Part shown: positions 1 to 16,291 of the stretch, piece after piece
How the letters are laid out: every line of letters starts with the position of its first letter
How positions within the stretch are numbered: the stretch's first letter is position 1
DNA from: Spirochaetales bacterium
Lineage (GTDB): Bacteria > Spirochaetota > Spirochaetia > SZUA-6 > DRHE01
Length of the DNA stretch: 64,000 nucleotides
Direction: 5' to 3'
Assembly (NCBI GenBank): GCA_030615505.1
Contig: JAUWZD010000008.1
Span: forward strand, 104 to 64,103
The notes under the pieces: model-generated
What the model saw: only the letters and a program-made list of their open reading frames with translations
What the model was told of the DNA's origin: nothing
Databases searched by the model: none
Translations under genes and position numbers: made by a program

Positions 1-588
1 CCCTTTCCACATTTCTCTTATAACTCGCAAGCGAAGCAAACAGCTTGCCTTCCACAGTGCCCTTAACTTCCCCTTCAAGCCTGTCAAGAAGCTCTTCATA
101 AACTATTAATGCATCTGTTTCCCAGTTTGAAACCAATATCTCTATTTTATCTTCTAAAAGAGCATCCCACGCTTCTCTGTGTTCATCCAGATCAGCCATC
201 CCCTTGAGCATGGGGTCTCCGGCTGAGTCAAATAGAATATTCCCAGAACCATCCGTTTCAAAAAGGTACTCAAGATTGGCATTTTTTATCTCGGATAAAA
301 AGCTCAAAACATCAACAAGGGGTAAGGTTCTCTCAAACTTCTCTTCTGTCCATTCGGCAAGCCTTTCCTTTAAAAGTTCCTCATACTCATCCTTTTCCCA
401 CTCCGGCGCTGCTGCAAGGCCCAGGTTGGCTACACTTAGCCATGCCTCAAGCGTTTCCTCCCTGTCAGCACGGTTAAAATACACTAAAAGGCTTTCTCTA
501 CCAGCCGCTTGAGTTTCAAGACCTTCCTGTGCGCTTATGCCGGCAATAATAGAAAAGAACAGGAGTATAGAGAGATACCTTCTAAACA
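1..588 (-). CDS. Secreted hypothetical protein, partial (3' end of gene runs off window start)
   Basis: Minus-strand ATG at 588 gives MFRRYLSILLFFSIIAGISAQEG... (signal peptide). The frame stays open to position 1 with no stop. The listed + ORF 204..512 is antisense to it. Confidence 0.6.
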
Positions 589-667
589 TGAGCCGCCCCT
601 CTTATGAATTAATTATTACATAGTTTGATATAAATCAAGCTGTTTGTCAAATAATTTTGATAGTTTA

Positions 668-695
668 TTGACAAATTTATTTTACCAAATATACT
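668..695 (+). promoter_or_regulatory. Sigma70-like promoter (TTGACA-N16-TATACT) for the 726..13357 operon
   Basis: TTGACA at 668-673 and TATACT at 690-695 lie about 30 bp upstream of the ATG at 726. The direct repeat TCAAATAATTTT (649-660 and 699-710) and an imperfect palindrome flank it. Confidence 0.45.
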
Positions 696-725
696 GTATC
701 AAATAATTTTTGCACTGCAGTATAT

Positions 726-1370
726 ATGAAACAAATCCTTCTAATGATTATGCTGATTCTCATCTTCTCTTGTTCAGAGCAAAAAATAACTCATGAGCTT
801 TTAACACAATATGCTGAAGCGAAAACCCTATATATTAAAGGAAATCTTGACGAAGCTCTTCCACTATTTCTGGCAATAAGAGATAAGGCGCCTGAGTTCT
901 CAAGCAATTCCTTTATGTTGGGAAAACTCTATTTTTTTAAAAAAAATCATGAAGAGGCTGAAAAAACCTGGCTTGAAACGCTTGAGCAAAATCCGAAGCA
1001 TATAGATACAGTTAAGTGGCTTTCCAGACTCTACCTGATTCAGAATAAAGCAGAAGAAGCAGAAAGCTTAGTTGTCAAGGCCTTAAAAAACAGTTCCGAA
1101 GACCCGGAACTCCTGATCCTTCTGGGGAAAATAAAACGAGAGCAGAAGGATTTCAGCTTAGCAAATGAATTTTATATTAAGGCTCAATTTTTTAAAGAAA
1201 AACTCGCAGAAGCTTATATCGATTTAGCAGAAATATATGGGAAATTCGGTCTTGCTGGTAAGGCAGAACAAGAACTTGAAAAGGCATTATTTCTTCTTGG
1301 TGAAGAGAGCAGCCTGTATAAATCGATAGAATCTATTCTTGCCGGGTTAAAAGAGGAGACAAAACGGTGA
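726..1370 (+). CDS. TPR-repeat lipoprotein
   Basis: Signal peptide with lipobox (LILIFSC). TPR-like helical repeats in translation. Stop overlaps the next start. Confidence 0.75.
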   Translation: MKQILLMIMLILIFSCSEQKITHELLTQYAEAKTLYIKGNLDEALPLFLAIRDKAPEFSSNSFMLGKLYFFKKNHEEAEKTWLETLEQNPKHIDTVKWLSRLYLIQNKAEEAESLVVKALKNSSEDPELLILLGKIKREQKDFSLANEFYIKAQFFKEKLAEAYIDLAEIYGKFGLAGKAEQELEKALFLLGEESSLYKSIESILAGLKEETKR

Positions 1371-1825
1371 AATATACCTTTATTCTTGTTTTAACAATCC
1401 TTCTATCATCATGCATACTGTTCAAAAGCTCCAGGGTAGAAGATGTTTTTTATAATAAGAGCTATAGCAATGGAATATTAAACAGCAATATTATAATTCA
1501 AAATCTTACAGTCCAGAAAGATCTTGATCATGGAACTGTCAAAGCAAATGCCCAGTATATTCTTGGCCTGCTATCGGCTAAATATAATGAGGATTTAACT
1601 CAAAAAGCTTCCACCCTTTTTGCCCATATAATAATAAAAGAAGCCCCATTTATAAAAAATTATGAAACCCTCAACTCAGTCGCTTTGGAGATTAAACTGA
1701 CAGAAGATCAGGATAAAAAACCTGTGTTTATTTACCTATTAAGTGATGAAACCAAAAATACTATCTCCTCCTATAAATACCTCTATGAGATACTTGAAAG
1801 GCCATTCAAACAAATATACAAATGA
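1367..1825 (+). CDS. Lipoprotein, hypothetical
   Basis: N-terminus MKYTFILVLTILLSSC with a lipobox. 4-bp overlap with upstream and downstream genes. Confidence 0.65.
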   Translation: MKYTFILVLTILLSSCILFKSSRVEDVFYNKSYSNGILNSNIIIQNLTVQKDLDHGTVKANAQYILGLLSAKYNEDLTQKASTLFAHIIIKEAPFIKNYETLNSVALEIKLTEDQDKKPVFIYLLSDETKNTISSYKYLYEILERPFKQIYK

Positions 1826-3261
1826 AAGGTTTTACAGCAGGTTTCTTTATCCTCTTTCTTGGATTATCGCCCTTTCTATTAAATGGACAAAGCAGCCTTA
1901 ATGTTAAACTAAAGACAATTGATCTTGAGACATCTATTTTTAGAGCGCTTTATAATAGTAGTGACATTCAGTATATGCGCTTCGAGCAAAGAATAGCTGA
2001 TGAGAGAGTTAAATTGGGCTTAAGGCGATTTTTCCCTATCCTTGAACTTGGATTCACCCAGAGTGATTCTGTAACCTACGGCAGCCCGGACTCGCGAATA
2101 AAAAAGCTCTCAGTCGGCCTGGAACAACTTATCTATGATGGTGGGAAATTGGCTCAAAGTTATAAGAATCAAAAAAATGAGCTAAGGTTGAATTCATACT
2201 CATTAAACCTAAAAACAGAGGAGCTAATCTTCTCAGTGATAAATCTATACACGGAGATTCTCAGATTTCGACTGACAAAAGAGATACAGAGAGAAACCTT
2301 CCAAAATGCTCTAAAACAGCTTGAAATTGCACAAGTGGAACATAAACTGGGCATGATCACGGAACTGGACCTATTAGATATAAAATTGGCTGTTGCAGAT
2401 TTTAAGATAGACCTTGAAGAGACAGAACAGGAGGAGAGACTCCTTATGTTTCAATTTGCAAGGATTCTCGGCTCTCCACCGGAGGAGACTCCACTTCCAG
2501 CGGGATACATCAACCCTGAGTATTCAGGATTCATCCAATGCGAGGATGATGATCTCTCTTCCTTATCAGATTATTATACTGAAAAAGCAAAAAAAAATAG
2601 TCTTGAGTTTATGAAAAAAAGTCTTCAAGTATTACAGAGTAGAGAGATTTTGCGTCAAGCAAAATGGAGATGGCTGCCCCAAATTAAAGCTAACTTAGAT
2701 CTTAGCATGTCCGGTAACCGCTTTCCCCTTTCTGAACCAGGTTTTAGCTTTGCTTTAGAATTTGGATTCGATCTTCCCGTAACACCCATTCAAACAAGCA
2801 GCACTTTGGGCAAAAAAGATCCTACTGAGAGATCAACTGGACTAAGCGTAAGCACACAACCCATTACAAACCTTGAAGGGCTCCTCTCTAAAAGAATAGC
2901 TGAAATAAACCTATCAAAAACCTGCAGCGAGTTGGACGATTTCGAAACCGATACCCGTTTCACTATTAAAGAGAGCCTAGTAAAAATAGATAACCAAAGA
3001 GAAACACTTGCCCTTTTTAGAAAGAAGCTGAAAATCGAAAAGGCCAGGTTTAAAATCCAAAAATTAAGAATGGAATTAGGGGAGATTAAGAGAATTGACC
3101 TTTTAAACAGTCAAATTGAACTCGCTGAACACAAAATTGAAATATTGAGTAAAATTGTAGAATTGTACTCAGCTGAGATAGCTTTATTGAGAAGCAGCGG
3201 AGTATCAGGACTGAAAGATACGCACAAGCACATTGTTCTAAAAGAAGAAGTAAGCCTATGA
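1822..3261 (+). CDS. TolC-like outer membrane efflux protein (OMF family)
   Basis: Signal peptide. Two-repeat alpha-helical/coiled-coil organisation typical of outer membrane factors. First of the efflux components, overlapping its neighbours. Confidence 0.8.
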   Translation: MKGFTAGFFILFLGLSPFLLNGQSSLNVKLKTIDLETSIFRALYNSSDIQYMRFEQRIADERVKLGLRRFFPILELGFTQSDSVTYGSPDSRIKKLSVGLEQLIYDGGKLAQSYKNQKNELRLNSYSLNLKTEELIFSVINLYTEILRFRLTKEIQRETFQNALKQLEIAQVEHKLGMITELDLLDIKLAVADFKIDLEETEQEERLLMFQFARILGSPPEETPLPAGYINPEYSGFIQCEDDDLSSLSDYYTEKAKKNSLEFMKKSLQVLQSREILRQAKWRWLPQIKANLDLSMSGNRFPLSEPGFSFALEFGFDLPVTPIQTSSTLGKKDPTERSTGLSVSTQPITNLEGLLSKRIAEINLSKTCSELDDFETDTRFTIKESLVKIDNQRETLALFRKKLKIEKARFKIQKLRMELGEIKRIDLLNSQIELAEHKIEILSKIVELYSAEIALLRSSGVSGLKDTHKHIVLKEEVSL

Positions 3262-4592
3262 AAAAAAATGTATGCCTTTTGCTACTATTAATTGCTTTAT
3301 CATGCAAGAACGAAACAGAACAGAAAACAGAGGCAAAAAAAGAAATAATCAGTATATCGGTTGCGCAAAAAGAGATGATAAGCTCTGAGTTTCGTTCATT
3401 CGGTATGATTGTCTATTTCAATAAGGCTGATGTATTTCCAACCACAGAAGGCAATATAGAAAATATCTACGCTGAAGAGGGTATGGAGGTAGAGAAAGGG
3501 CAAATTCTGGCTAGGTTGATGCAGCAAAAACTTCTCATCAGGAAAGAAGAAGCAGAAGCTGAAATCGGATCAAAAAAAGCCCTTGTTGAGCTCTCTGAAG
3601 AAAAACTTAAGGAAGCTGTAAAAGCTATTGAAGCCAAACTTATCAATATTAATAATACAGAAGCAGAGCTTGAACAGAAAAAAGCGGAGTTTGAAAATAT
3701 ATCTAATATTTATGAGAACAAAAAGAAATTATTTGAAGTTGAAGGGGTTTCAAAGGAAGAACTTGAATCCATTAAAACTCAATACTTGAGTTATAAAACA
3801 AAACTCGCACAAACAGAAGGAGATTTGGAGATACGGAGAATCGGGTTTAGAGACTGTGACATCATAAAAGCTGGGTATGAAGTTCCTGAGGATTACGAAG
3901 CAAGGAAGAAAATCCAGGTAAAAATTAATACACGCATGCTTGAAGCAGACAAAAAGGTTTCTGAAGCAGAGCTGAATGCTGCTTTATCCAACTTAAGAAC
4001 AATCGATCTTTTCATCTCAGAAACGATTATACGTGCTCCAATATCAGGCATCATCGGTTCCCGCTATTTGGATATGGGAGAGAAGGCCACTCCCGAAAGC
4101 CAGCTTTTTACCATATTCAACATAAAAAAAGTGTACATACAGGTTGATGTGAGTGAAAAAGATCTCTCTCAGATTAGACTTGGCCAGAAGGCGCTAATAG
4201 ATATTGAGGGGGGAAAATCATATACAATCGAAGGAACAGTAAAGTTGATTTCTCCCTATATCAACCCGGAGACAAGAACGGCAAGAATTAAAATAGAAGC
4301 GGATAATACTCATAAATTGCTCTCTCCCGGGATGTTTGTACGAGTGAAAATTATAACCGGCTTACCGGAAGAGAAGATATTCATTCCGGAAGGCTCCGTG
4401 CTTACCGACCAGGAAGGTAATTTCTACCTCTTTTTAGTGAGAAATAACAGGCTGTTTAAAAAACAGGTGGAAGTGGGGACCAAACATGAAGATAGAATTA
4501 TCATAGTAGATGGCATCGAAGAAGGAGATTTAATATGCTTAAATCCCTCTGTATCTTTTAAAGACGGGACAGAAGTGGAGGTAATAAAATGA
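3258..4592 (+). CDS. Membrane fusion / periplasmic adaptor protein, HlyD family with a long alpha-hairpin
   Basis: Lipobox N-terminus. About 150-aa coiled-coil segment. C-terminal beta-barrel/MP motifs (IRAPISGIIG..., LISPYINPETRTARIKIEADN) typical of HlyD/RND adaptors. Confidence 0.85.
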   Translation: MKKNVCLLLLLIALSCKNETEQKTEAKKEIISISVAQKEMISSEFRSFGMIVYFNKADVFPTTEGNIENIYAEEGMEVEKGQILARLMQQKLLIRKEEAEAEIGSKKALVELSEEKLKEAVKAIEAKLININNTEAELEQKKAEFENISNIYENKKKLFEVEGVSKEELESIKTQYLSYKTKLAQTEGDLEIRRIGFRDCDIIKAGYEVPEDYEARKKIQVKINTRMLEADKKVSEAELNAALSNLRTIDLFISETIIRAPISGIIGSRYLDMGEKATPESQLFTIFNIKKVYIQVDVSEKDLSQIRLGQKALIDIEGGKSYTIEGTVKLISPYINPETRTARIKIEADNTHKLLSPGMFVRVKIITGLPEEKIFIPEGSVLTDQEGNFYLFLVRNNRLFKKQVEVGTKHEDRIIIVDGIEEGDLICLNPSVSFKDGTEVEVIK

Positions 4593-6040
4593 AACAATTT
4601 TTTTTATGCGCCGCAGTCTTATTCATTTGCAGCTGCAAGCTGTTTTTTTTTCCGGATACCTCAGGAATTAAAACATCTCCATCCGAACGGGATCAAATTT
4701 TGGGCTTGGATGAAGAGATTTATATTGATTTTGATTTCTCTGTTGACAGGCTTTCAGTTGAAAAAATCTTTTCAGTAGAAAGCCAGGGTGGAACAGCAGG
4801 CGGCAGTATCACATGGGATGGAGACACTCTAACCTTTACGCCGGAACCGGAACTCATCTTTGGTGCACGATACGTTTTAAATTGCAAGGGCACTATACAG
4901 GATAAAGAAGGCAACAGCTATAAATTGGATATTGAAATTCCCTTTTTTTATGGAAGTGATGAGGAGCAGCAGCCCCTGGTCGTATCAGTGAGCCCTTCAA
5001 GCGGACAGAAGGTTTCAGGCACAACACCTGTAGTGATAGGTTTTTCCAAGAAGATAGATACGCTCACTTTTAAAGATGGGTTTGATCTCTCACCGGATAC
5101 TGACCATGAAATTACCTGGAATCCGGCTAATACAATCGTAACGATTACTCCGGATGACCGGTGGCATAATCTCGTTTTATATACTGTAAGCCTGGATGAT
5201 GCGATAAAGGATACGAAAGGTATACCACTCTCAGTGGAAGTTGAAACGAGCTTTTTAGTTGAAGATGACGCCGATATACCGATGGTAGTAAGTGCCGGTC
5301 CGGCAGAAAACGACTGGGGCCCTCCCCCATTCAACCTGATAAGCACAGATCTGAATGATATCACCTACACGGACGCTATCCGAATCACTTTCTCAGAGGC
5401 CATGGAACAGGAAAAGACCGCTCAAGCCTTTTCTCTTACACCGGGTGTTACGGGGGAGACAGTCTGGATAGACGAAGAAAATCTAGTATTTATCCCGGAA
5501 ACAGGTTACGATATGAGCACGGAATATACCCTGGCTATTGAGAAAACGGCAGAAGATTTATACGGAAACCCGCTTTCAGATGACTATATTGTTCAATTTT
5601 CAACGGATCTCACCATACCGATACTGGAAGTATCCTCTATTAAGGCAATTAAAGACACAAGTACGATTGAGATGACTCCTCCCTATGATACTGCCAACCC
5701 GCAGGACTTAGATGACGGAGGCGGGATTCCTGATTATAACTATGAGTTCATATTCGAATTTTCTGAACCCTTCACCACGAGCGAGGAGAAATACCTGGTT
5801 CAAAGCAATATCAATATTTCCGTTGAGTTTGGTGATGTAAGCAGTCCCTATGCTATTGGCCACACCTGGCTGACCGATTATGAATTAAGCATCACTTTTA
5901 CAGGTTTTAATTCCGCTCTGGACTTAGAGTACTATTATATGCTTGAAATAAAAGGGGGGCAAAATGGTATTAAGAACAACGAAGGGAGTTATCTTCCTGA
6001 AGACATCAGGCAGCTTCTAAGAATAAGGATAGAAGAATGA
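4589..6040 (+). CDS. Lipoprotein with bacterial Ig-like (SbsA/Big_5-type) domain
   Basis: Lipobox FICSC. Motif ITFSEAMEQEKTAQAFSLTPGVTGETVWIDEENLVFIPETGYDMSTEYTLAIEKTAEDLYGNPL matches the Big_5 consensus. ATGA overlaps on both sides. Confidence 0.75.
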   Translation: MKQFFLCAAVLFICSCKLFFFPDTSGIKTSPSERDQILGLDEEIYIDFDFSVDRLSVEKIFSVESQGGTAGGSITWDGDTLTFTPEPELIFGARYVLNCKGTIQDKEGNSYKLDIEIPFFYGSDEEQQPLVVSVSPSSGQKVSGTTPVVIGFSKKIDTLTFKDGFDLSPDTDHEITWNPANTIVTITPDDRWHNLVLYTVSLDDAIKDTKGIPLSVEVETSFLVEDDADIPMVVSAGPAENDWGPPPFNLISTDLNDITYTDAIRITFSEAMEQEKTAQAFSLTPGVTGETVWIDEENLVFIPETGYDMSTEYTLAIEKTAEDLYGNPLSDDYIVQFSTDLTIPILEVSSIKAIKDTSTIEMTPPYDTANPQDLDDGGGIPDYNYEFIFEFSEPFTTSEEKYLVQSNINISVEFGDVSSPYAIGHTWLTDYELSITFTGFNSALDLEYYYMLEIKGGQNGIKNNEGSYLPEDIRQLLRIRIEE

Positions 6041-7461
6041 AAAAAATAATCCTTCTTATCATCGCCATACAAGTAATCCTGACAGGATGCCGTTTAATCC
6101 AGGATTTTATGAACATGAGCCCCCCGGAAATCCTCTCTTTCTCTCCGGATGACGAGTACGTAACGGCATCTGAGTTATCTGAGGTGTGCATCACATTTTC
6201 TCAAGGCATGGATAAAACAAAAACCGAAGGAGCCTTTTCCTTGACAGAAGGCTCAAGCAGCCTTGAAGGCGTGTTTTCCTGGAAAGAAAACAGACTATCC
6301 TTTGTGCCCTTTTCAGGTTTTAAAACAAACAAAACGTATACCATTCAAATTGAAACCACGGCGGAAGATCGATATGGGAACTCTTTAATGGATGAGTTCT
6401 ATTTTACTTTTTTCACAGGAGAGGAAAAAAACCGCCCTAGAATTGTAGGCCATTCCCCTGCTGCCGGGGCTGTAATTGCCAACCTCTTGGAACCTGTTAT
6501 TATTAATTTTTCAGAACCTGTTGACAAGGAGAGCCTTTACTCAAGCTTCAGTATATCACCCGAAGTCCAGGGAAATTTTACTTGGAATATTGATAACAGT
6601 GTGGTCACATTTACGCCTTTAGAATCCTACGTTGAGGGTGAAGAATACAGAGTGGAGATATCAACAGACCTGGAGGACCTGTCCGGCAACACTTTAGCCG
6701 AAGAATTTTCTTTCCGCTTCCAGGCGGGAGTAGAGACAGATCTCGTGATTAATTCACTAACCACTATGGCAGGCGGAACTGTCATCGAAGATACCAGCAT
6801 CATAACAGTGAATACGGGAATTGAGAAAGATGAAGTGTTTCTAATGGATTTCAATATTCCGGTACCTTTTGAACAAACAACCGGTATCTTTAATATTTCC
6901 CCATCCGCTAATTATAACCTCTACTGGGCTTTAGATTACGAGTCCTGTACTGTCAGCTTTACAGAATACCTGGAATACGGCCAGGTATATGAAATAGTCA
7001 TACTCGAGAATACCTACAGGATCAAGATCGATGGCCCCAATTCCTTGCCTCTTGAAGTTATTCGCCTGACGTTTTGCAATGACAAAACAGAAGTTCCACC
7101 TGTATTTACAACACTTAACCTTAATGATCCCTTCCCTGTTGTAGACTCAAGCACGTCCTGCCTGGATTTTTATATCCACCATGCAACAGGGGCAAGTTTA
7201 AACACTGGCTCCTTTATTGACGCCCTGTCCATTGATTCAGACGCTGTAAGCTTTACACTTCAAAGCATCGAAAATCCTGCAAATGCTTCAACCCCCCCAC
7301 CCAATCCGCCAATTGGTGCGGATGTAACCGTTATTCGAGTAAACTGTGAAGTAAGCGAAGTTCTCCCATCCGGCCTCGTTACCATATCCCTTGATACGGA
7401 TCTTAAAGATTCATTCAATAATACGCTTTTAGAAGAATATATCATGCAGGTAAATCATTGA
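6037..7461 (+). CDS. Lipoprotein with bacterial Ig-like (SbsA/Big_5-type) domain, paralog of 4589..6040
   Basis: Lipobox LTGC. Motif ITFSQGMDKTKTEGAFSLTEGSSSLEGVFSWKENRLSFVPFSGFKTNKTYTIQIETTAEDRYGNSL parallels the upstream gene. Confidence 0.75.
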   Translation: MKKIILLIIAIQVILTGCRLIQDFMNMSPPEILSFSPDDEYVTASELSEVCITFSQGMDKTKTEGAFSLTEGSSSLEGVFSWKENRLSFVPFSGFKTNKTYTIQIETTAEDRYGNSLMDEFYFTFFTGEEKNRPRIVGHSPAAGAVIANLLEPVIINFSEPVDKESLYSSFSISPEVQGNFTWNIDNSVVTFTPLESYVEGEEYRVEISTDLEDLSGNTLAEEFSFRFQAGVETDLVINSLTTMAGGTVIEDTSIITVNTGIEKDEVFLMDFNIPVPFEQTTGIFNISPSANYNLYWALDYESCTVSFTEYLEYGQVYEIVILENTYRIKIDGPNSLPLEVIRLTFCNDKTEVPPVFTTLNLNDPFPVVDSSTSCLDFYIHHATGASLNTGSFIDALSIDSDAVSFTLQSIENPANASTPPPNPPIGADVTVIRVNCEVSEVLPSGLVTISLDTDLKDSFNNTLLEEYIMQVNH

Positions 7462-10400
7462 AGCTGTTAGAAAGAGCCGCCGGACATCCCGTATCAGTAA
7501 TTATGGTATATACGGGTGTATTGCTTTTTGGTCTTGTTTCCCTTTTTAAGCTGAATGTTGAGCTACTGCCCACAATCAATATCCCGGTGGCCCATGTTAT
7601 AACAGAATACCCGAATATCCCCTCTTCAGAAGTGGAACAGCTTGTTACAATACCATTGGAAAATGCACTTTCATCTGTAAAAGGCGTTAAACAGCTAAAC
7701 TCAATCACAAAACAGGGAATATCTTCTGTTGATTTGAGATTTGACTGGGGAAGCAATATTGACAAGGTCGCAGTTGAAATTCGAGAGAAAATTGATTCCG
7801 CTTATCCTTTTCTGCCTTATGGGATTAAAAAGCCTCTTGTTTTTACAGAGGATCTATCTGATGTGCCGGTCATTACCCTTGCCGTTTTCCCAAAAGGAAA
7901 CAGCACAATAGAAGAGATTAGTGATACTGTAAAGAAGGAACTGAAGACCAGACTCCTCCAGATAAAAGGGGTTTCTGACTTGCGCATCGTAGGAGCCACA
8001 GAGCCTGAGATAAAGATCGTTGTTGATGCCTATAAGCTGTACGCGGCTAATATTCCGATTAGTCAAATCATTGAAACAGTAGGATCCTCTATCTATGAAT
8101 ACCCGGCAGGAAAAATCACAGAGGGTGATCTTGAGTACCTTGTTAAAGCTTCCACAGGGGTTACAAGCATAGAAGAGATTAAAAACCTGCCAATACTGAC
8201 AGGCACCGGCACAGTAGGTCTTCATATATCAGATCTTGCTGCAGTCTATCCCGGCATAAAGATGAGAACATCTTTTTTTCATATGAACGGGAAAGATGCC
8301 ATCGGTATATTTATAAATAAAACAGGAGACTCAGGAACTTTAAACGCCTCTGGCAATATCCTTAAAGATTTAGAGGATATTAAAGAGATATTTAGAAAAG
8401 AACTGTCCATCGAAGTAATAGAGGACAGATCAGATGAAATAAGGGCTTCAATAAAAAGCCTATTTATCGCGATTGCTCTTGGCATTATTGCCGCTTTTAT
8501 AGTGCTCTTTTTTTTCTTTAAAAAAAGGGCTATACCGCTTATTACGATTATATCAGTACCAGCTTCGATGACATCCGTTTTTTTATTCATGTACATAAGC
8601 AATATTTCTTTAAACATCATCTCTCTTTCCGGTATAGCTATTGGAATCGGTATGATCGTTGATAACAGTATCGTTGTATTGGAAAATCTGCTTAAAAACA
8701 GGGCTAAAAGCCCGAAAGAGATTGCTTCAAGCACTATAGAAATGGGCTCATCAACATTTGCCTCCACAGTCACAACCCTTTTAGTCTTTCTACCTGTTCT
8801 CTTTATACCCGGTATAACAGGCGCACTCTTTAAAGAACTTGCACTTACAATCAGCTTTTTAATAGCTTCATCATTTATTATTTCCATGACACTGGCTCCG
8901 GCACTGTACAGTCTCTTCCTCGCACAATTACCACCTGAACAGGATGGAATGGCTTTTAAAAGAACTCGATTGTCTTTACGTTATCGCCGTATGCTGTGCT
9001 TCATGATAAGAAAACCTGTATTCCCTATTTTTATTTTAGTGTTAGTAGCAGGCCTCGGATCTATGCTATTTTTAGCCTTGCCTAAAGAGATAATTCCGGA
9101 AGTAGACAGGGGAAAGCTCGAAGCCATTTTTTCTTTCCGCAGAGGAATTACAGCGGAAGATTCTTCTTCCCTGACAAAAGAAATTGAGATATCGCTTTTA
9201 GAGCTTGGTGAGGCAGATATTATTTATTCTGAGGCAGGATTCGATAAGACTTCTGTGAAGGATAAGGCAAGCAGCGGGAGAGACTTAGCTACAGTCAGGA
9301 CCGGGATTATTCTGAATAAAAAACGAAGCGCATCCATTTGGGAAGCAAAGTCATTAATAGCAGGACACCTGGAAAATGAAGGCGATTTTAACTTTCAGGT
9401 AAAAATACCTGATGACGTGATTAAGAAGCTTTTAAACGCTGAAGGCTCGATTCAATTTCTGCTTACAGGAACAGACAGGGAAAAACTTATTTATGATGCA
9501 GAAGCTATTGTAAAGCAGGCACGTGAAAAAAATCTGATAAGCATCGCCGATATTGATACAAAAAAAGAAAGCCCTGAGATTCACCTTAATCTAAAGAGCG
9601 ATTCCCTGGCTTACAGCAGTCTGCAGCCATCAGGCATACTTAATGCCATGTCAAGTTCAATAAGAGGAACTGTTGCCACAAAACTTAAAACAGATGAAGG
9701 TGAAACAGATATCAGAGTCAGATTAAGAAAAGAGCAGACAAGCACAATAGAAAAGCTGGAAAAACTGAAAGTGAAATCTCCAAATGGATTCCTGGAAATA
9801 GGCAATCTTGGAGATTTATCAAAAGATCTTGCTTTCAGTGAAATTTTCAGAAGAAACAGAAAAATGTCTGTTGAAATTACATTCCTGCCTCAACCCGGAA
9901 GAGAGAAGATCCTGAAAAATTATCTTCTCTCCATTCAGAACGAATATAACACAACAAGTTCACAAACAGCCCTTGAACGCAGCTTTAAAGAAATCGGTAT
10001 GGTTTTTATCTTAGCTGTTATTCTAATGTATTTAATTCTCGGAGCGCAATTTGAGTCGTTTACAGTACCCCTTCTACTGCTTATATCATTACCTCTATCG
10101 CTTTTTGGAAGCCTGCTCTTGCTTTTTATTACAGGAAAAAGTATCAATATCAACTCATTCTTGGGAATTCTTATTCTTCTGGGAACCACAATCAATACAT
10201 CTATCATTCTGTGTGCCTCTTTCGGAAAAGGAAGTTTTCCTGAGATTATCAGCGGAAGCATCTCCAGGCTAAAGCCCATCCTGGCCACTGTTTGCACAAC
10301 CATCTTTGCTCTTCTTCCTATTGCGGTGAATCCATCTGCAGAGAACACGATCCAGAGTAACACAGCAATCTCTGTAGTCGGCGGGCTTTTTTCAGGAACA

Positions 10401-10463
10401 CTTACAACGCTTATTATCTTTCCGGTCATATATTTCTACTTAAAAAGAAAAAGCCACCATTAA
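7458..10463 (+). CDS. RND-superfamily efflux permease (AcrB/CzcA-like, 12 TM)
   Basis: 1001 aa. TM4 motif GIAIGIGMIVDNSIVVLEN. Large periplasmic loops. Typical RND size and topology. Confidence 0.9.
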   Translation: MKLLERAAGHPVSVIMVYTGVLLFGLVSLFKLNVELLPTINIPVAHVITEYPNIPSSEVEQLVTIPLENALSSVKGVKQLNSITKQGISSVDLRFDWGSNIDKVAVEIREKIDSAYPFLPYGIKKPLVFTEDLSDVPVITLAVFPKGNSTIEEISDTVKKELKTRLLQIKGVSDLRIVGATEPEIKIVVDAYKLYAANIPISQIIETVGSSIYEYPAGKITEGDLEYLVKASTGVTSIEEIKNLPILTGTGTVGLHISDLAAVYPGIKMRTSFFHMNGKDAIGIFINKTGDSGTLNASGNILKDLEDIKEIFRKELSIEVIEDRSDEIRASIKSLFIAIALGIIAAFIVLFFFFKKRAIPLITIISVPASMTSVFLFMYISNISLNIISLSGIAIGIGMIVDNSIVVLENLLKNRAKSPKEIASSTIEMGSSTFASTVTTLLVFLPVLFIPGITGALFKELALTISFLIASSFIISMTLAPALYSLFLAQLPPEQDGMAFKRTRLSLRYRRMLCFMIRKPVFPIFILVLVAGLGSMLFLALPKEIIPEVDRGKLEAIFSFRRGITAEDSSSLTKEIEISLLELGEADIIYSEAGFDKTSVKDKASSGRDLATVRTGIILNKKRSASIWEAKSLIAGHLENEGDFNFQVKIPDDVIKKLLNAEGSIQFLLTGTDREKLIYDAEAIVKQAREKNLISIADIDTKKESPEIHLNLKSDSLAYSSLQPSGILNAMSSSIRGTVATKLKTDEGETDIRVRLRKEQTSTIEKLEKLKVKSPNGFLEIGNLGDLSKDLAFSEIFRRNRKMSVEITFLPQPGREKILKNYLLSIQNEYNTTSSQTALERSFKEIGMVFILAVILMYLILGAQFESFTVPLLLLISLPLSLFGSLLLLFITGKSININSFLGILILLGTTINTSIILCASFGKGSFPEIISGSISRLKPILATVCTTIFALLPIAVNPSAENTIQSNTAISVVGGLFSGTLTTLIIFPVIYFYLKRKSHH

Positions 10464-10477
10464 AGGCGAGATAGCCC

Positions 10478-13357
10478 ATGGCCTTTCATCAAAGCTGGAC
10501 ATCGAAACCTGTACGGGTTCTATTTATTCTCATAAGCTTTACAATGCTCCTTTTCCTTTACAGCAGGACAATACCTCTAGGCTATCTTCCCTCGGTCCAG
10601 AGGAAATCCATTCTTATCAGGATTGAACATAAAGGCGCTTTTGAAAATCAGATTGAAAAAGTGATTACAAACCCGGTGGAGAGAGAAATATCCAGGATAC
10701 GCGGCATAAAAGAGATTTTTTCCGTATCGGAACAGGAAAAAGCTCGCATCAATATCAGCTTTTTTGCAGAAACAGACCTTGATAAAGCTTACTTAAGGGT
10801 TCGAGAGGCCGTTGATAGGGTGTATGCCGCCCTGCCGGACGGCGTACAAAGACCGATCATAGCAAAAAGTGATATCAATTCAAGGCCGGTTTTTATAGCT
10901 GCTTTTGAAAATAAAGGATATCTGGCTGAAGACTATCTAAAACGGCTATATGAAAACATAAAAGGCACAGGGGAGATCGATATAGGCGGTGGAGTTAAAA
11001 TGGAGGTCCAGATATCCTTTTATCCTGACAAAACGGCACAAGCCAAAATATCTGTGCCTCAAATATTGAACAGCATCCGGGGAAACAACATTGTAGGCGG
11101 GTTTGGGCGCGAGACGGAGATCCCTCACATTATCGATGCCAGGCTTAAAAATATTGAAGAAGTAAGAGCATTACGTGTAACTCGTGACATAACCCTTGGA
11201 GAGATTGCTCAAGTCAGGCTGGAAAAAGCTAAGAAGGAAAGCATTGGACGCGTTAATGGCAAAGAAAAAATCATCGTTTATGTCCATGAGGCAGGCGACG
11301 CTAACACGGTAAATCTCTGCAGAAAGCTAAAATGTTTGACACTAAAGATCCCTGAAGGGATGATACTTTATAATTATGGAGAGAAAATTGAGAAGTCTCT
11401 TGAGGAAATTCTTATTTCGATTATTTCCGGAATTGTATTTGTAACAGCTCTCACGTTCATATTTTTAAAGAAAATATATCCGGCCCTGCTTGTCAGCCTG
11501 AACATCCCCTTTTCCGTTCTTTTTACTGCGGCATGCCTCAATTCCTTTGGATATGAATTAAACATCATGACCTTATCCGGTATTGCCATTGGTATAGGAT
11601 TGGTTATTGACTCAGGTATAGTCTATGTGGAAGAGTTCTTTGCCTCTAAAGGCGATCTACAAAAAACCTTACAAGGATCATCCCATCCAATTTTATTTTC
11701 ATCGTGCACAACCATAGCTGTCTTTATTCCTCTTCTTTTTGCCCAAAGGGAGCTTACTGATCAGTTCGGAGGACTGGCGATTGCGGTTTCTTCTTCTATT
11801 ATAGCTTCAGCAATTTTTGTCTTTCTTTTTATGCCGGCTTTTCTTTCTTTGTTTTTTAAAAGAGATTTAAAATCAGAAAATTATCTCAAAGCAAAATCTT
11901 CTCCGCTTATATCAGGCATCCTTAAAAGAGCCTTTTTCCTTACAAGCAGATTTCGCCCTGTTTTTATTGGACTTACACTCATCCTAGTAGCTGCATCAGG
12001 ATTCATTCTTCATAACCTAAGGCGACAAAATTTTAACTTAAACACAGGAAACACTGTATCTTTTAAGTTAGAGTATCCAAGCGGAACAACACTTGATCAA
12101 GTTTTTAACACGGCTTCTGAGCTTGAGGATTATATAACATCGCTCAATGGGATAAAGACAAGCGCCAGTAAATATGAAAAAGAGCGAGCCTCTTTTGATT
12201 TGACATTAAATGACAATACAGAACAAAAACCGATTATTAAAAAATTGAAAAGCCGGGAACACTACTACAAAAATATCTTTTTCTATTTTCCGGAGAAATC
12301 AGATGATGAAGATTCATTCGATGTTATTTTAACAGGAAAGGGAAACACTAAACTCCGGGAGTTGTCAAAATCCGTATCTGAAGAAATAAGGAAAGATCCT
12401 GCTGTCACAGGCATCATTTTCCACTATAAAGATGTGCTCCCTTCAAAGCAGGTAGCAATAAATCTTCACGATTCTGCAGGACTTGGAGTAAATCCGAAAG
12501 ATCTATATTCACATCTATACTGGTCTCTCTCCGGCCCTGTTGCTTCAAAATGGAATCCACCCGGACAAACAGAATCCGGTAATGCATACGCCGATATAAG
12601 GCTCTTTGCTGGAAAACTTCAGACAGCAGCATTTGCTGATCTTATGAATATAAAATTTACAGGCCCGGATGGTAAGGCGGTCGAATTAAAAGACATGGCA
12701 TCCTTCTCTGAAAAACAAGAGACAGGAAGGATATACCACTCAGGCCGGCAGAGAAGCGTCAGTTTTTCGGTTAGAACCAGGAAAGCGGATAAGTTTAAAA
12801 TTCTACAGAGGGCAAACAGGATTATTTCTGATTTCCCATTTCCCGGAGGCTACAGAGCGGAAGCCGGCCGTACAGAAAAAGAAGAAGAGAGACTTAAAGT
12901 TTCTTCGGCAGTCAGTCTCTCTTTGTCAATATTGCTTATCCTGATCATATTGGTTTTTCAATTTGAAGGAATAAGAATACCCCTTATTATAATGTCTCAA
13001 ATACCCTTATCATTTATCCTGCCGGTTCTACTTTTAAAAATATTAAATCTTTCCCTTTCAATGCCCGTTATGATTGGGCTTATTCTTACAGCTGGAATAT
13101 CTGTAAACAACTGCATCTTAGTTTTTGACCGCCTAAAAGGCCGCATATTAAGTGGTATATCTGTATATACAGCACTCGAGGCTAAATTTAAAGCCATGCT
13201 GATAGCCTCACTTACAACAGTCATGAGCGTACTGCCTCTTTTTTTCGTTGGTAGAATCGGAGCGGGTGTTCTTGCTCCGCTGTCACTCACTATATCCGCA
13301 GGTATTACCGGATCTGTTATTTTTCTGCTGATTAGCCTGCCTGTTCTGTTCAAATAA
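10478..13357 (+). CDS. Second, divergent RND-superfamily permease
   Basis: 959 aa. TM4 motif GIAIGIGLVIDSGIVYVEE. Lies 14 bp downstream of the first permease. Confidence 0.85.
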   Translation: MAFHQSWTSKPVRVLFILISFTMLLFLYSRTIPLGYLPSVQRKSILIRIEHKGAFENQIEKVITNPVEREISRIRGIKEIFSVSEQEKARINISFFAETDLDKAYLRVREAVDRVYAALPDGVQRPIIAKSDINSRPVFIAAFENKGYLAEDYLKRLYENIKGTGEIDIGGGVKMEVQISFYPDKTAQAKISVPQILNSIRGNNIVGGFGRETEIPHIIDARLKNIEEVRALRVTRDITLGEIAQVRLEKAKKESIGRVNGKEKIIVYVHEAGDANTVNLCRKLKCLTLKIPEGMILYNYGEKIEKSLEEILISIISGIVFVTALTFIFLKKIYPALLVSLNIPFSVLFTAACLNSFGYELNIMTLSGIAIGIGLVIDSGIVYVEEFFASKGDLQKTLQGSSHPILFSSCTTIAVFIPLLFAQRELTDQFGGLAIAVSSSIIASAIFVFLFMPAFLSLFFKRDLKSENYLKAKSSPLISGILKRAFFLTSRFRPVFIGLTLILVAASGFILHNLRRQNFNLNTGNTVSFKLEYPSGTTLDQVFNTASELEDYITSLNGIKTSASKYEKERASFDLTLNDNTEQKPIIKKLKSREHYYKNIFFYFPEKSDDEDSFDVILTGKGNTKLRELSKSVSEEIRKDPAVTGIIFHYKDVLPSKQVAINLHDSAGLGVNPKDLYSHLYWSLSGPVASKWNPPGQTESGNAYADIRLFAGKLQTAAFADLMNIKFTGPDGKAVELKDMASFSEKQETGRIYHSGRQRSVSFSVRTRKADKFKILQRANRIISDFPFPGGYRAEAGRTEKEEERLKVSSAVSLSLSILLILIILVFQFEGIRIPLIIMSQIPLSFILPVLLLKILNLSLSMPVMIGLILTAGISVNNCILVFDRLKGRILSGISVYTALEAKFKAMLIASLTTVMSVLPLFFVGRIGAGVLAPLSLTISAGITGSVIFLLISLPVLFK

Positions 13358-13362
13358 GCCGC

Positions 13363-14802
13363 TTAAGTTGCTTCAATCCCAAGTATACTATCAAGGCGCT
13401 CTTTCAGCCTGCCTGAGGCATTATCGCGTTTCGCTTCAAGATATGCCCTTACTATCTCGTTTTTTTTTGCCTCTTGTAACATCAACACAGCGGCCATCTG
13501 ATAAACATTATCAGGAGTAGAGAGGAGGTCCATAACCGGATCCAGGATATTTACAATTCCTGTCGAAAGTCTTCTATAAATGGCATCTAACTCATGTCCT
13601 AAGAGGATCTTTTCTCCGTCACTCTTCGATAGTCCTAACAGCCTTCCCAGTTCTATTCTTGTCTCTTCAGCATACAGGGTTCCCGGGGCCAGTAAGATGC
13701 ATTTCTCAAGCACATTTCGGGCCGTGCCAATATTATAATTCCCCTCACTTTTTTTCATCCCCTGCCAGAGGTGATAATAATAGGCGGGAAGCCCGCGGAA
13801 AGATGCTTCTAAATCTATATAAAACTTTAAATCATCTATCCCTGCATTGCCCTGCTCAAGACTCGATGAAAGGACCAAATACCTGTGGAATTCCATATCT
13901 TCATCGAATTTAAAGCTCGTTAAAAGGCTGTTTGCTTCTACCCAGATCCCGGAGACATAGGCTTTAAGCCCTCTTATTAGAGACTTTCCCTGCTTTCGTG
14001 GATTCCAGGAGGTATCTGAAAGCTTTTCTTCAAGACAAATGAGTCTCTCAATTTGCTGCCCGGAGGATATCAATCCATTGTATCTCTGATACTCCAGATC
14101 TTTAAAAGCAGCTAAAATTCCTTCGTTTATGCGGCCAAGCTTTTCATATATGGCCGATTCCTTTATGCCAAGATTCGTCTCATACCCGAATTTAGCCTCA
14201 TATTGCTTTATCACACCGAGAACATCCTCATATTTTTCCTGCTCAAGTAACAGAACGATATAGGCATTCATATCTTCCCTGTTCATGTTATTTTTCTGCT
14301 CCTCCCAACCTTCCTGAAAAACTTTTAAGGCCTCTTCGTCCTCTCCAATTTCTAAAAGGCACTTTGCCTTTGTAAAGAGTACACCAATTTTATCTTTAAT
14401 TTTAAAGCCTAACGCCTTATCAGCATACTCTAATCCTTTTTTGTACTCTTTCTTTCGATAGGAAAGCTCTGCGAGGTTTGTAAAAAGAAGGAATTTTAAA
14501 TTCTTATCTTTATTCTTTCTAACGAGTTTTAGGCCCTGTTCTAAATAAGCTGACGCTTTTTGCATATCGCCGGAAGCCAGCAACATGCCTCCGATATTAA
14601 CCTTTAATGCCAGCTTGTCCGGATACTGCTGATCGAGTGAGAGTAGAGAATTAAAGAGCTCAAGCCCTTTTTCATTTTTCATTGCTTCATTAAACTTATC
14701 TTCAAATTCATTATCCCCGGCTTTACATGAGATAACTAAGAATAAAATGAGGCAAATTACACATAAGTATATATGTGTCCGCATATAGGAACTCCTTTGC
14801 AA
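13363..14802 (-). CDS. TPR-repeat lipoprotein
   Basis: Lipobox LVISC. Multiple TPR-like repeats. Convergent with the efflux operon. Confidence 0.7.
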   Translation of the reverse strand: MQRSSYMRTHIYLCVICLILFLVISCKAGDNEFEDKFNEAMKNEKGLELFNSLLSLDQQYPDKLALKVNIGGMLLASGDMQKASAYLEQGLKLVRKNKDKNLKFLLFTNLAELSYRKKEYKKGLEYADKALGFKIKDKIGVLFTKAKCLLEIGEDEEALKVFQEGWEEQKNNMNREDMNAYIVLLLEQEKYEDVLGVIKQYEAKFGYETNLGIKESAIYEKLGRINEGILAAFKDLEYQRYNGLISSGQQIERLICLEEKLSDTSWNPRKQGKSLIRGLKAYVSGIWVEANSLLTSFKFDEDMEFHRYLVLSSSLEQGNAGIDDLKFYIDLEASFRGLPAYYYHLWQGMKKSEGNYNIGTARNVLEKCILLAPGTLYAEETRIELGRLLGLSKSDGEKILLGHELDAIYRRLSTGIVNILDPVMDLLSTPDNVYQMAAVLMLQEAKKNEIVRAYLEAKRDNASGRLKERLDSILGIEAT

Positions 14803-14978
14803 ATCATACTTTTTCTGCTTTATGGAAAAAGCTAAAATTGGCTTAACTATATCATCCCTTATTTAATTAACGCAACAATTGTTGCAGTTCTTAAAGCATC
14901 GGGGCTTGAACCTTATATCATAACACTCTATGGAGCAGCAAAAGCGCTAAAAGTAAGATTAAAAAAACCAGCTCTTAT

Positions 14979-15383
14979 TTATATATACTTCACCATGCTT
15001 TCAACATCCAGTCCAATATGTTCTGCCATCAAGTCAAAGTAATAGTCAGCATGTACGAGAAGGGCATTCACATAGAGAGCAGAAGCAGCAATAAACATAT
15101 CGGAATGCGGAACTGTAATTCCATTGCTGCGTAAGGTATATGCTTTTTCAGATTAATAATCCCACAAGGATTTTGTGGATTCTATAAATACCAGATTATC
15201 CAGTCTTATTTTCAGTCTTTCATACTCGCTTTTTGTTTTGGTACCTGCAAGGAGCTCAAGCTTAATCATGCCATTTATTGCAACTTCATTTTCCTTTAGA
15301 AAACGATCGATCTTGTCCTTTATTACAGGGTTATAATCTTTTCTTAAGGAAAAAATCCAAGCTGAAGTGTCAATGAGAATCAT
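14979..15383 (-). pseudogene. vapC: PIN-domain toxin VapC, frameshifted
   Basis: ORF 15153..15383 gives the N-terminal half (MILIDTSAWI...). The C-terminal half (ITVPHSDMFIAASALYVNALLVHADYYFDLMAEHIGLDVESMVKYI) reads in another frame at 14979..15149. Together they make about 131 aa. Confidence 0.7.
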
Positions 15384-15595
15384 GAATTTCCTGTATCCTC
15401 TCTATCCTTATTAAGGGATTCCAGTGTAATATCAAGATCAAATGTGCCGAGTTCTTTGCGAAGGATTTCGCGATTTTTTTTCCTGATAATTTCACGAAGT
15501 CCTTCTTCGATAACTGCCTTCTTGGTTTTTAATTGAGTAACCTGCAATGCAGTGTTTATTAGGTTATCATCTATAACTACTGTAGTTTTACTCAT
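15380..15595 (-). CDS. vapB: VapB-family antitoxin (Rv0623/DUF2191-like)
   Basis: MSKTTVVIDDNLINTALQVTQLKTKKAVIEEGLREII... matches this antitoxin family. GGAG sits 9 bp upstream of the ATG at 15595. 4-bp overlap with vapC. The 106-aa track ORF is an over-extension. Confidence 0.75.
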   Translation of the reverse strand: MSKTTVVIDDNLINTALQVTQLKTKKAVIEEGLREIIRKKNREILRKELGTFDLDITLESLNKDREDTGNS

Positions 15596-15607
15596 AAGCT
15601 TCTCCTG

Positions 15608-15655
15608 GTATGTATTATTCATACATACTAATGTATATAAAATAAATATGTATGT
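15608..15655. promoter_or_regulatory. Putative vapBC operator / divergent promoter with four ATGTAT/ATACAT half-sites
   Basis: GTATGTAttattcaTACATACtaATGTATataaaataaatATGTATG. Perfect inverted repeat at 15608-15628. Confidence 0.45.
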
Positions 15656-15687
15656 CAAAAAAGTGACACATCTCAAGGAAGTATCAT

Positions 15688-16062: not shown

Positions 16063-16291
16063 AGATTTCTGCTTGTTTGATGTGGTTAAAAGGGTCTGGC
16101 AAACCGGCAACCCCGAGCATCCCCCTGTTTTTCAGTATAAGGATAAGAGCAAAATCGGATGGCTGGATAGTTATGTCATAAAACTGCCTTCCGGTGAAAT
16201 AGTTGTTGTTTATAATGATGTTACCGATCGCAAGCAAGCAGAGGAAGAGAAAAACTCCAGGATGAAAAAAAAGAGTGTTAAAACGATCTAA
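16060..16291 (+). pseudogene. PAS-domain fragment (C-terminal half of a PAS fold only)
   Basis: FDVVKRVWQTGNPEHPPVFQYKDKSKIGWLDSYVIKLPSGEIVVVYNDVTDRKQAEEE matches the PAS C-terminal half. There is no N-terminal half and no output domain. Confidence 0.5.

Follow-up and report, generated by a model that had tools for sequence, protein, structure and literature searches.

Organization of the locus

The usual description of an RND tripartite pump is an assembly of a channel, an adaptor, and a permease. In the stretch of spirochaete DNA analyzed here (64,000 nucleotides, referred to as the window), genes for these components share an operon with a second permease gene and with genes for two large Ig-like lipoproteins (Table 1), which raises the question of whether the additional proteins are part of the pump and what such a pump would handle.

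All eight plus-strand ORFs that an earlier note, prepared from the DNA sequence, had placed at 726-13357 were found there, and Pfam and NCBIfam returned the domains it had named, i.e., TPR, OEP, a HlyD-type adaptor, Big_5 (twice), and ACR_tran (twice). The tight coupling that it proposed is borne out by the gene junctions, six of which are 4-bp overlaps of the NTGA type (ATGA in four cases, GTGA and TTGA in one each), the seventh being a 14-nt gap ahead of RND2. Five of the products (ORF1, ORF2, the adaptor, Big5a, and Big5b) carry a lipobox; ORF2 had no match in Pfam, NCBIfam, or the PDB. Closely 5' of ORF1 lies a sigma-70-like site, TTGACA-16-TATACT (11/12 matches), which gave the top promoter-like score within the 16.5 kb scanned. 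Among the flanking ORFs inspected, none was found to encode a regulator of the TetR or MarR type.

Table 1. Coordinates of the operon and its conserved neighbors in the window
Feature	Position	Strand	Properties
Giant secreted protein, 5' end	589..1	-	196 codons; divergent; runs off the window start; signal peptide MFRRYLSILLFFSIIAGISAQ
Divergent intergenic region, giant/ORF1	590..725		sigma-70-like site at 668-695 (+)
TPR lipoprotein (ORF1)	726-1370	+	214 aa; lipobox IFSC; multiple TPR Pfam families
Small lipoprotein (ORF2)	1367-1825	+	152 aa; lipobox LSSC; without known family
Outer-membrane factor (OMF), TolC-like	1822-3261	+	479 aa; plain signal peptide; Pfam OEP 1.7e-39, two stretches
Periplasmic adaptor (MFP) lipoprotein	3258-4592	+	444 aa; HlyD_D23 1e-31; TIGR01730 RND_mfp 1e-60; lipobox ALSC
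Big5a, acidic lipoprotein	4589-6040	+	483 aa; Big_5 5e-33 (three stretches); four tandem Ig-like beta-sandwich domains
Big5b, four-domain Ig-like lipoprotein, paralogue of Big5a	6037-7461	+	474 aa; Big_5 2e-32 (two stretches)
RND permease 1 (RND1)	7458-10463	+	1001 aa; TTG start; ACR_tran 2e-166, full length
RND permease 2 (RND2)	10478-13357	+	959 aa; ACR_tran 2e-115
Convergent TPR lipoprotein	13363-14802	-	479 aa; lipobox VISC; TPR families

Although the eight genes stand as described, the boundaries drawn around them were too narrow, as the conserved unit reaches further on both sides, to the divergent giant gene and to the convergent TPR lipoprotein gene. The stop codon of the latter is separated from that of RND2 by 5 nt, and its orthologues occupy the matching position in L006, L010 (56% identity), and L015 (38%), the last of these being the locus of Sediminispirochaeta smaragdinae (CP002116).

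Conservation of the operon in spirochaetes

Related loci were retrieved in a genome scan with a six-sequence Big5a alignment, a nine-sequence alignment being too divergent. About 13 independent loci, whose proteins are 25-75% identical, contain the OMF-adaptor-Big5a-Big5b-RND1-RND2 module, and because the same order recurs over this range, the arrangement is not a product of chance. The neighborhood comparison that had been suggested for this operon does reveal a recurrent OMF-MFP-Big5-Big5-RND-RND order in spirochaetes; all relatives bearing organism names belong to Spirochaetota. The full order, from the TPR and small lipoproteins to RND2, is seen in L001, L003, L006-L010, L012, L013, and L015, while L016 holds a core-only version and L019 and L020 offer partial views. 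Orthologues of the ORF1 TPR lipoprotein are encoded by the first operon gene in L001, L003, L006, L009, L010, L015, L019, and L020, and orthologues of ORF2 (152-167 aa) occur at the equivalent position in L003, L006, L009, L010, L013, L015, and L019. The 4-bp overlaps are also kept in orthologous operons.

Big5a-type and Big5b-type genes are represented once each in every locus. The same is almost always true of RND1-type and RND2-type genes wherever both permeases are visible, the exception being L017, in which RND1 is the best match of both permeases. In L004 and L017/L018, the order is permuted to OMF-MFP-RND1-RND2-Big5a-Big5b, with all four genes staying together. The linkage between the Ig-like lipoproteins and the permeases thus outlasts rearrangement. 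The proposal that the two lipoproteins belong to the pump is thereby strengthened, as their orthologues accompany the RND genes at every locus examined, permuted ones included, and they are probably integral pump subunits.

The channel, the adaptor, and the two permeases

The third product of the operon is an outer membrane factor, with a Pfam OEP score of 136 bits (gathering score 22) in two stretches, and it lies below the cut-offs of the TolC (62.7 versus 225) and NodT (27.8 versus 210) subfamilies. The adaptor is assigned to the RND adaptors by TIGR01730 (205 bits; cut-off 94.9). Both permeases are members of the RND superfamily, with ACR_tran scores of 556 (RND1) and 387 bits (RND2) against a cut-off of 28 and matches spanning positions 8-1020 and 9-1017, respectively, of the 1021 in the profile. 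In pairwise comparison, RND1 and RND2 share 24% identity.

Neither permease falls within the HAE-1, MdtB/MdtC, or HME subfamilies. On the HAE-1 models RND_permease_1, RND_permease_2, and TIGR00915, RND1 reached 495, 373, and 307 bits, respectively (cut-offs 1250, 1250, and 940), with RND2 scoring below RND1. The MdtB and MdtC equivalog models gave 252 and 283 bits for RND1 and 140 and 158 bits for RND2, versus cut-offs of 1584 and 1774, which places both proteins outside MdtB/MdtC orthology, and the CusA/CzcA model TIGR00914 gave 289 and 168 bits, versus 701, which places them outside the HME group. The closest PDB matches of RND1 are CmeB and MdtB; RND2 matches the C-terminal models of SecD/SecF.

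In AcrB, the proton relay is made up of two TM4 aspartates, Asp407 and Asp408, together with Lys940 of TM10. This relay is absent from both permeases, which have one TM4 Asp and an Asn in place of Lys940. The corresponding motifs are VDNS (TM4) and INT (TM10) in RND1, and IDSG (TM4), VNN (TM10), and K-F-K (TM11) in RND2; in solved pumps, the residues aligned with the RND2 motifs are DD, K, and R-L-R. Across 18 orthologues, the TM4 D-(N/S/A/G) and the TM10 N are invariant, whereas the TM11 Arg/Lys is retained in RND1 and variable in RND2.

Structure of the Ig-like lipoproteins

Both genes between the adaptor and the permeases encode Big_5 (PF13205) proteins, as the earlier note had anticipated, with scores of 114 and 112 bits against a gathering score of 23.6. 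An AF2 model of Big5a (pLDDT 88.5) has four beta-sandwich domains, and the AlphaFold model of Big5b likewise shows four in tandem; neither model has an enzyme site or a metal site. Foldseek matched Big5a to Ldt Ig stalks, S-layer proteins, and cadherins. More broadly, the fold matches of the Big_5 arrays are spacer or scaffold Ig arrays and not enzymes, the nearest being the Ig-like stalk of LdtMt2, SbsC, and the MG domains of bacterial alpha-2-macroglobulin; none of these is associated with a transporter. Among homologues, the lipobox Cys is invariant in Big5a (Cys16) and nearly so in Big5b (Cys18). Apart from it, no His, Met, or Cys position is conserved in the alignments of either family.

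A role for these lipoproteins as substrate-delivery chaperones, raised previously, is not favored by models that depict four-domain Ig rods lacking a ligand-binding module, nor by alignments lacking conserved His, Met, and Cys. A surface macromolecule as substrate, which the earlier note put forward, is conjectural.

A giant secreted protein adjoins the operon

The earlier reading overlooked what we rate as the most informative clue, namely, the conserved giant neighbor, 196 codons of which lie inside the window. An exhaustive HMMER search of 1.84e9 representatives with this 196-aa N-terminal piece gave 68 matches, every one at the N-terminus, and the complete proteins are 2,100-4,170 aa long. 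Homologous giants diverge from the operon in L001, L003, L009, L010, and L015, the N-terminus in the window being 62% identical to that of the L009 giant and 29-39% identical to those of the other four; L017 has a giant near its permuted operon. The pairing also held as a prediction: P0064 and the distant P0100, giants found solely through their N-termini, both proved to be divergent to the RND/Big5 operon. The giant is not obligatorily adjacent, since L012, L013, L016, and L004 have the operon without it.

Signal peptides are present in all giants examined at the N-terminus. The N-terminus and core of the family are conserved, and the last 300-500 aa are variable. Among 15 giants scanned with the C-terminal end covered, three (P0064, P0078, and P0100) contain Peptidase_M23. 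In both M23 giants with a visible 3' flank, the gene directly following encodes an LRR protein, which in L019 is a lipoprotein. Most giants had no match in Pfam or NCBIfam, no recognizable toxin domain was found in most of the C-terminal tails, and a PDB sequence search with one giant gave no match. PHROGs returned one match to phrog_22272, a family whose function is not known, and a weak tape-measure match for the L017 giant; a phage origin of the giants was set aside given their Sec signal peptides and chromosomal contexts.

Comparison with known RND systems

The closest layouts are those of MdtABC-TolC and MuxABC-OpmB, in which a single operon likewise carries one adaptor gene and, after it, the genes for two distinct RND permeases, and MdtB and MdtC form a heterotrimer (PMC8277102). 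The duplication in the spirochaete operon is nevertheless independent, considering the low identity between RND1 and RND2 and their scores of 140-283 bits on the MdtB/MdtC models (cut-offs 1584-1774). Moreover, in contrast to MdtABC and MuxABC, the products of this operon include the OMF, the two Ig-lipoproteins, the TPR lipoprotein, and the small lipoprotein, and its permeases lack the DD/K relay. BesABC of Borrelia burgdorferi, the sole characterized spirochaetal RND pump (PMC8277102), has three genes, one permease, and a hairpin-less adaptor, without Ig-lipoproteins.

For Big5a and Big5b, the best functional analogy is provided by MmpL5-MmpS5, in which the small, membrane-anchored, all-beta periplasmic protein MmpS5 binds MmpL5 protomers 3:3 and locks the trimer (PMC12262633). 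The analogy is one of function, with no sequence relationship seen. MmpS5 consists of a TM helix and one domain of eight strands, whereas Big5a and Big5b are both lipoproteins and each contain four Ig domains, and the spirochaete pump is of the AcrB type with a classical adaptor and OMF. In CusCFBA, the gene for an extra periplasmic beta-protein, the chaperone CusF, also lies within an RND operon (PMC8277102), but CusF is a small soluble metallochaperone, in contrast to the four-domain Big5 lipoproteins without conserved metal ligands. YbjP is reported to be a long-overlooked accessory lipoprotein that is stoichiometric in a tripartite pump and binds TolC 3:3 (PMC13095208). Compared with TolC-YbjP-AcrABZ, the accessory genes of the spirochaete system are embedded in the operon. 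The YbjP gene is not known to be linked to pump genes, and the fold of YbjP is not known to be Ig-like.

In the literature searched, we found no description of Big_5 or Ig-like lipoproteins accompanying RND pumps, and NCBIfam has no model specific to this layout; source records label the proteins merely "Ig-like domain-containing" or "hypothetical." With no paper or curated family showing this layout, the suspicion that it is not a described RND subtype holds, and we regard it as an undescribed form of the tripartite RND exporter.

Discussion

The OMF, the adaptor (itself a lipoprotein), the Big5a/Big5b pair, and two RND permeases of ancient divergence are co-inherited with TPR and small lipoproteins, and a divergent, Sec-exported protein of 2,000-4,000 aa usually adjoins the operon. 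The explanation that we favor, and hold to be somewhat better than evenly balanced, is a tripartite RND-type exporter, confined so far to spirochaetes, that contains Ig-lipoproteins and heteromeric RND permeases and whose job is tied to the giant. RND1 and RND2 would form a heteromeric trimer, by analogy with MdtB and MdtC; alternatively, they may form separate homotrimers with one adaptor in common. Big5a and Big5b would be stoichiometric, membrane-anchored periplasmic subunits that, as struts or clamps, could hold permease, adaptor, and channel together in a manner comparable to MmpS5 and YbjP. Transport would be ion-driven through a non-canonical relay made up of one TM4 Asp, the TM10 Asn, and the TM11 Arg or Lys. 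The cargo is probably linked to the giant protein, and the physiological job could be export or deployment of the giant or handling of its products, as opposed to xenobiotic efflux.

A rival explanation is a dedicated machine for two-step secretion. Sec would deliver the giant to the periplasm, where the RND permeases, together with the Ig-lipoproteins, would take hold of it and pass it out through the adaptor/OMF duct; the giant itself would be an effector resembling polymorphic toxins, with a C-terminal domain that varies. The conserved divergent synteny with its two successful predictions (2/2), the signal peptides, the conserved N-terminus and core with variable C-terminal ends, and the M23 domains are consistent with this scenario, as is the LRR gene after both M23 giants, the LRR lipoprotein of L019 being suited to the role of a periplasmic immunity protein. 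SecDF is an RND-superfamily member that acts on polypeptides, so the SecD/SecF matches of RND2 count in the same direction, although such similarity is, to our knowledge, common to all RNDs. Against it, we know of no RND tripartite pump that exports proteins, least of all proteins of 3,000 aa; four loci have no adjacent giant, most giant tails lack a recognizable toxin domain, and the association of LRR proteins with immunity comes from two cases only. On balance, we judge two-step secretion to be unlikely. Also quite unlikely is its elaboration into a spirochaete protein-secretion route, in which an RND-powered, Ig-rod-braced TolC-type duct would export a Sec-delivered polymorphic effector of 2,000-4,000 aa whose C-terminal domain (M23 in some, with an LRR lipoprotein for immunity) attacks neighbors or remodels the wall.

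The operon could instead encode an ordinary MdtABC-like efflux system for multiple drugs or toxic metabolites, with the Big_5, TPR, and small lipoproteins as merely co-transcribed envelope proteins that play no role in the pump. Operons with two RND permeases are known (PMC8277102), and the PDB and NCBIfam entries most similar to RND1 represent multidrug pumps (CmeB, MdtB, and RND_permease_2), but the curated multidrug-pump models all score far under their cut-offs, the DD/K relay is missing, and no drug-sensing regulator was found locally. Furthermore, both Big5 paralogues stay with the RND pair over 25-75% identity and through permutation of the gene order, and stop-start overlaps set their genes between the adaptor and the permeases, all of which makes simple efflux rather improbable. 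Metal efflux, with CopC-like Big_5 domains acting as periplasmic metallochaperones in the manner of CusF in CusCFBA, is very improbable. The Pfam CopC score is 22.9, under the cut-off of 23.3. His and Met are scarce in mature Big5a (3 and 5 residues, respectively), the N-terminal His site of CopC could not be formed by a domain internal to a lipoprotein, and both permeases fall well short on the CusA/CzcA model. With conserved metal ligands absent from both Big5 families (the lipobox Cys aside), a CopC/CusF-type role was rejected.

The accessory subunits AcrZ, YbjP, and MmpS each altered the understanding of pump assembly. The exporter proposed here incorporates a second permease along with two large Ig-rod lipoproteins, and its permeases have lost the residues of the classical proton relay. 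These features point to a different solution for assembly and coupling. Experiments are feasible, since S. smaragdinae DSM 11293 is cultured, fully sequenced, and carries the whole cluster. For Spirochaetota, a phylum with poorly known envelope biology, the recurrent pairing of the operon with a variable-ended giant secreted protein offers a specific lead, open to experiment, toward a function other than drug efflux.

Organization and domain content of the operon

All eight plus-strand ORFs proposed in the earlier note are present at exactly the coordinates it claimed, and every one of its domain assignments is borne out by Pfam and NCBIfam. At six of the seven junctions, adjacent genes overlap by 4 bp in the pattern NTGA: ATGA four times, GTGA once, and TTGA once, the TTGA reflecting the TTG start codon of the first permease, RND1. 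The remaining junction, ahead of the second permease, RND2, is a 14-nt gap. Lipoboxes are found in five of the eight products, namely the adaptor (MFP), the TPR and small proteins, and the pair of Ig-like proteins, Big5a and Big5b; the TolC-like outer-membrane factor (OMF) has a signal peptide of the ordinary type. The 136-bp gap preceding ORF1 contains a sigma-70-like site with 11 of 12 matches, the best within 16.5 kb.

Coordinates of the operon, its neighbors, and features of related loci (L numbers denote loci in other genomes)
Locus	Coordinates (strand)	Feature	Matches and remarks
Window	589..1 (-)	Giant gene, 5' part	Signal peptide plus 196 residues; gene continues past window start
Window	204-512 (+)	102-aa ORF, TTG start	No family match; antisense to 5' end of giant gene
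Window	668-695	Sigma-70-like site	
Window		ORF1, TPR lipoprotein	Multiple TPR families
Window		ORF2, small lipoprotein	No Pfam or NCBIfam match
Window	1822-3261 (+)	OMF	OEP 1.7e-39
Window	3258-4592 (+)	Adaptor (MFP)	HlyD_D23 1e-31; RND_mfp 205 bits (cut-off 94.9)
Window	4589-6040 (+)	Big5a	Big_5 5e-33
Window	6037-7461 (+)	Big5b	Big_5 2e-32
Window	7458-10463 (+)	RND1	ACR_tran 2e-166
Window	10478-13357 (+)	RND2	ACR_tran 2e-115
Window	13363-14802	TPR lipoprotein	Convergent to operon
Window	20470-26101 (-)	mreB-mreC-mreD-PBP2-rodA	Elongasome cluster, 7 kb downstream
Window	27113-27509 (-), 38580-38801 (-)	RNA genes	Bacterial RNase P RNA class A (273 bits) and two tRNA genes
Window	32889-36866 (-)	1,325-aa protein	FlgD_ig x4, CHU_C, Big_13, C-terminal OmpA domain
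Window	1-18000	Operon and flanks	G+C 0.37-0.42
Window	18000-26000	Radical-SAM and elongasome region	G+C ~0.49-0.52
L003	1-6008 (-)	Split giant	847-aa N-terminal ORF; remainder at least 2,030 aa
L017	14347-20877 (-)	Giant	phrog_22272 4e-33 (N-terminal 450 residues)
L019	8675-9711	AbiEi/AbiEii toxin-antitoxin pair	Inserted between giant gene and operon
L019	20575-21177	LRR gene after M23 giant	Lipobox; lipoprotein
L020	22087-22905	LRR gene after M23 giant	

Conservation across loci

Full-length relatives of the Ig-like proteins are few, with only about 10 for Big5a and about 25 for Big5b among 5.8 billion clustered proteins, and the same module is present in every genomic context that could be read for them. 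The order TPR-(small)-OMF-MFP-Big5a-Big5b-RND1-RND2 recurs in L001/L011, L003, L006-L010, L012 (an Oceanispirochaeta MAG), L013, and L014/L015. Of these, L015 is the fully sequenced Sediminispirochaeta smaragdinae DSM 11293, with the cluster at about 1.887-1.908 Mb of CP002116.1. L016 has the six core genes only. At 25-32% identity, L004 and L017/L018 show the permuted order OMF-MFP-RND1-RND2-Big5a-Big5b, so the four Big5 and RND genes stay together through rearrangement. Reciprocal BLAST assigns one Big5a-type and one Big5b-type gene to each locus, and one RND1-type and one RND2-type gene to nearly all, an exception being L017, where RND1 is the best match of both permeases. Both duplications are therefore old and have been maintained.

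Relatives with an organism name all belong to Spirochaetota, and database annotation of these proteins goes no further than “Ig-like domain-containing protein” or “hypothetical protein.” Full-text literature searches returned no description of such an operon layout, and the novelty that had been proposed for it stands within the literature searched.

The Ig-like lipoproteins

Over their first two domains, the paralogues Big5a and Big5b share 28% identity, and both proteins are strongly acidic. AlphaFold2 models of high confidence (pLDDT 88.5 and 90.4) show each as a lipid anchor followed by four successive β-sandwich domains; with a pTM of about 0.6, confidence in how the domains are arranged is lower than in the individual domains. 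Judging by the number of domains, an extended rod would be about 15 nm long. Conservation in the family alignments falls on aromatic and acidic residues, Pro, and Gly; apart from the lipobox Cys, no His, Met, or Cys is conserved. We read both proteins as rod-like structural subunits rather than small-ligand chaperones. The previous interpretation holds in part: of the two roles it suggested, that of chaperone finds no support, and that of accessory subunit is upheld by the persistence of Big5a and Big5b with the RND pair across loci.

The permeases

RND1 and RND2 share 24% identity; both are full-length ACR_tran proteins, and both score far under the curated cut-offs of all multidrug, MdtB/MdtC, and CusA/CzcA models. 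When aligned to pumps of solved structure, RND1 has Asp-Asn and RND2 has Asp-Ser where AcrB-type pumps carry the TM4 Asp-Asp pair; both have Asn in place of the TM10 Lys (Lys940 in AcrB) and Arg or Lys at the TM11 Arg position. Across 18 orthologues, the single TM4 Asp and the TM10 Asn are invariant, and the TM11 basic residue is missing from some RND2 orthologues. These substitutions point to energy coupling unlike that of the textbook relay. Sodium coupling is conceivable in hosts that are mostly marine or halophilic, as a matter of pure speculation. MdtB and MdtC are functionally asymmetric, and by analogy RND2 may be less active than RND1.

A giant protein family divergent from the operon

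The Sec-exported product encoded at the window start is probably about 3,500 aa long in full, and the short antisense ORF there most likely represents a shadow ORF. The 196 residues of the giant product inside the window have homologues at the N-termini of very long ORFs that are divergent from the operon in L001 (2,942 aa), L003, L009, L010, and S. smaragdinae (3,165 aa). The L003 gene is in two pieces, either truly split or broken by an assembly frameshift. Next to the permuted operon of L017 is a further homologue, of 2,176 aa. An exhaustive HMMER search with these residues gave only 68 representatives among 1.84 billion, with the match N-terminal in every case and complete proteins of 2,100-4,170 aa. 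The genomic context was checked for the closest of these, P0064 (3,520 aa), and for a distant one, P0100 (4,008 aa), and both genes are divergent from TPR-small-OMF-MFP-Big5-Big5-RND. Four loci (L004, L012, L013, and L016) have no adjacent giant, so the link is strong, not absolute. The position of the convergent TPR lipoprotein gene is conserved in L006, L010, and S. smaragdinae. The conserved unit is larger than the earlier note reported.

Most family members have no match in Pfam, NCBIfam, or the PDB. When P0064 is compared by BLAST with 28 other long members, conservation covers an N-terminal region of ~440 residues and a core and is absent from the final 300-500 residues. P0064, P0078, and P0100 have a C-terminal Peptidase_M23 domain carrying the HxxxD and HxH motifs, and the M23 tail of P0064 covers residues ~3,300-3,520. 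An LRR protein gene lies directly 3' of the M23 giant in both cases with a visible 3' flank. The LRR protein is possibly a cognate inhibitor or immunity protein, an arrangement resembling a polymorphic effector with its immunity gene in a small sample in which most tails have no identified domain.

The core (e.g. P0064 ~2,650-3,100) conserves a DxDxDG-like “WDDDKDNDG,” “GLLEL.LGG,” “HEA(H/Y/F)R(D/N)G,” and a hydrophobic Gly/Ala-rich stretch; the HEA(H/Y/F)R(D/N)G motif could mark a processing or membrane-insertion module. The PHROG family matched by the L017 giant, of unknown function and with a 4,080-position profile, indicates that members of this giant family also occur in some records labelled as viral; the same comparison gave a weak tape-measure match.

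Elsewhere, a PBP gene lies just past the operon in L003, L012, and L013. With an M23 domain in the giant family and elongasome and PBP genes nearby, a connection to the cell wall is possible. The domain mixture of the 1,325-aa protein, which includes the type IX secretion signal domain CHU_C, is odd for a spirochaete.

Proposed mechanism and alternatives

The best-supported reading has four parts: the operon would encode an RND exporter spanning the envelope with a heteromeric permease, Big5a and Big5b would be integral, paralogue-specific Ig-rod subunits of it, the further lipoproteins would be accessories, and its function would be linked to the giant secreted protein. The analysis shows directly which genes make up the system, that they are inherited together, and the folds, relay residues, and synteny described above; from these data we infer heteromer formation by RND1 and RND2, physical binding of the Big5 proteins to the pump, its ion coupling, and its cargo. 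Accessory subunits have precedents: MmpS5 acts as a 3:3 clamp on MmpL5 trimers (PMC12262633), TolC is bound 3:3 by YbjP (PMC13095208), and a review covers the MdtBC heterotrimers and the chaperone CusF (PMC8277102).

The conservation pattern speaks against an ordinary drug pump with the lipoproteins as bystanders, which is disfavored, and so is a metal pump with CopC-like chaperones, for which the metal ligands are absent. The boldest proposal, secretion of the giant protein by this machine in two steps, seems rather unlikely. The giant neighbor is a concrete lead to function that lies beyond the view of the earlier note, and the system is carried by a cultured, sequenced organism, S. smaragdinae.
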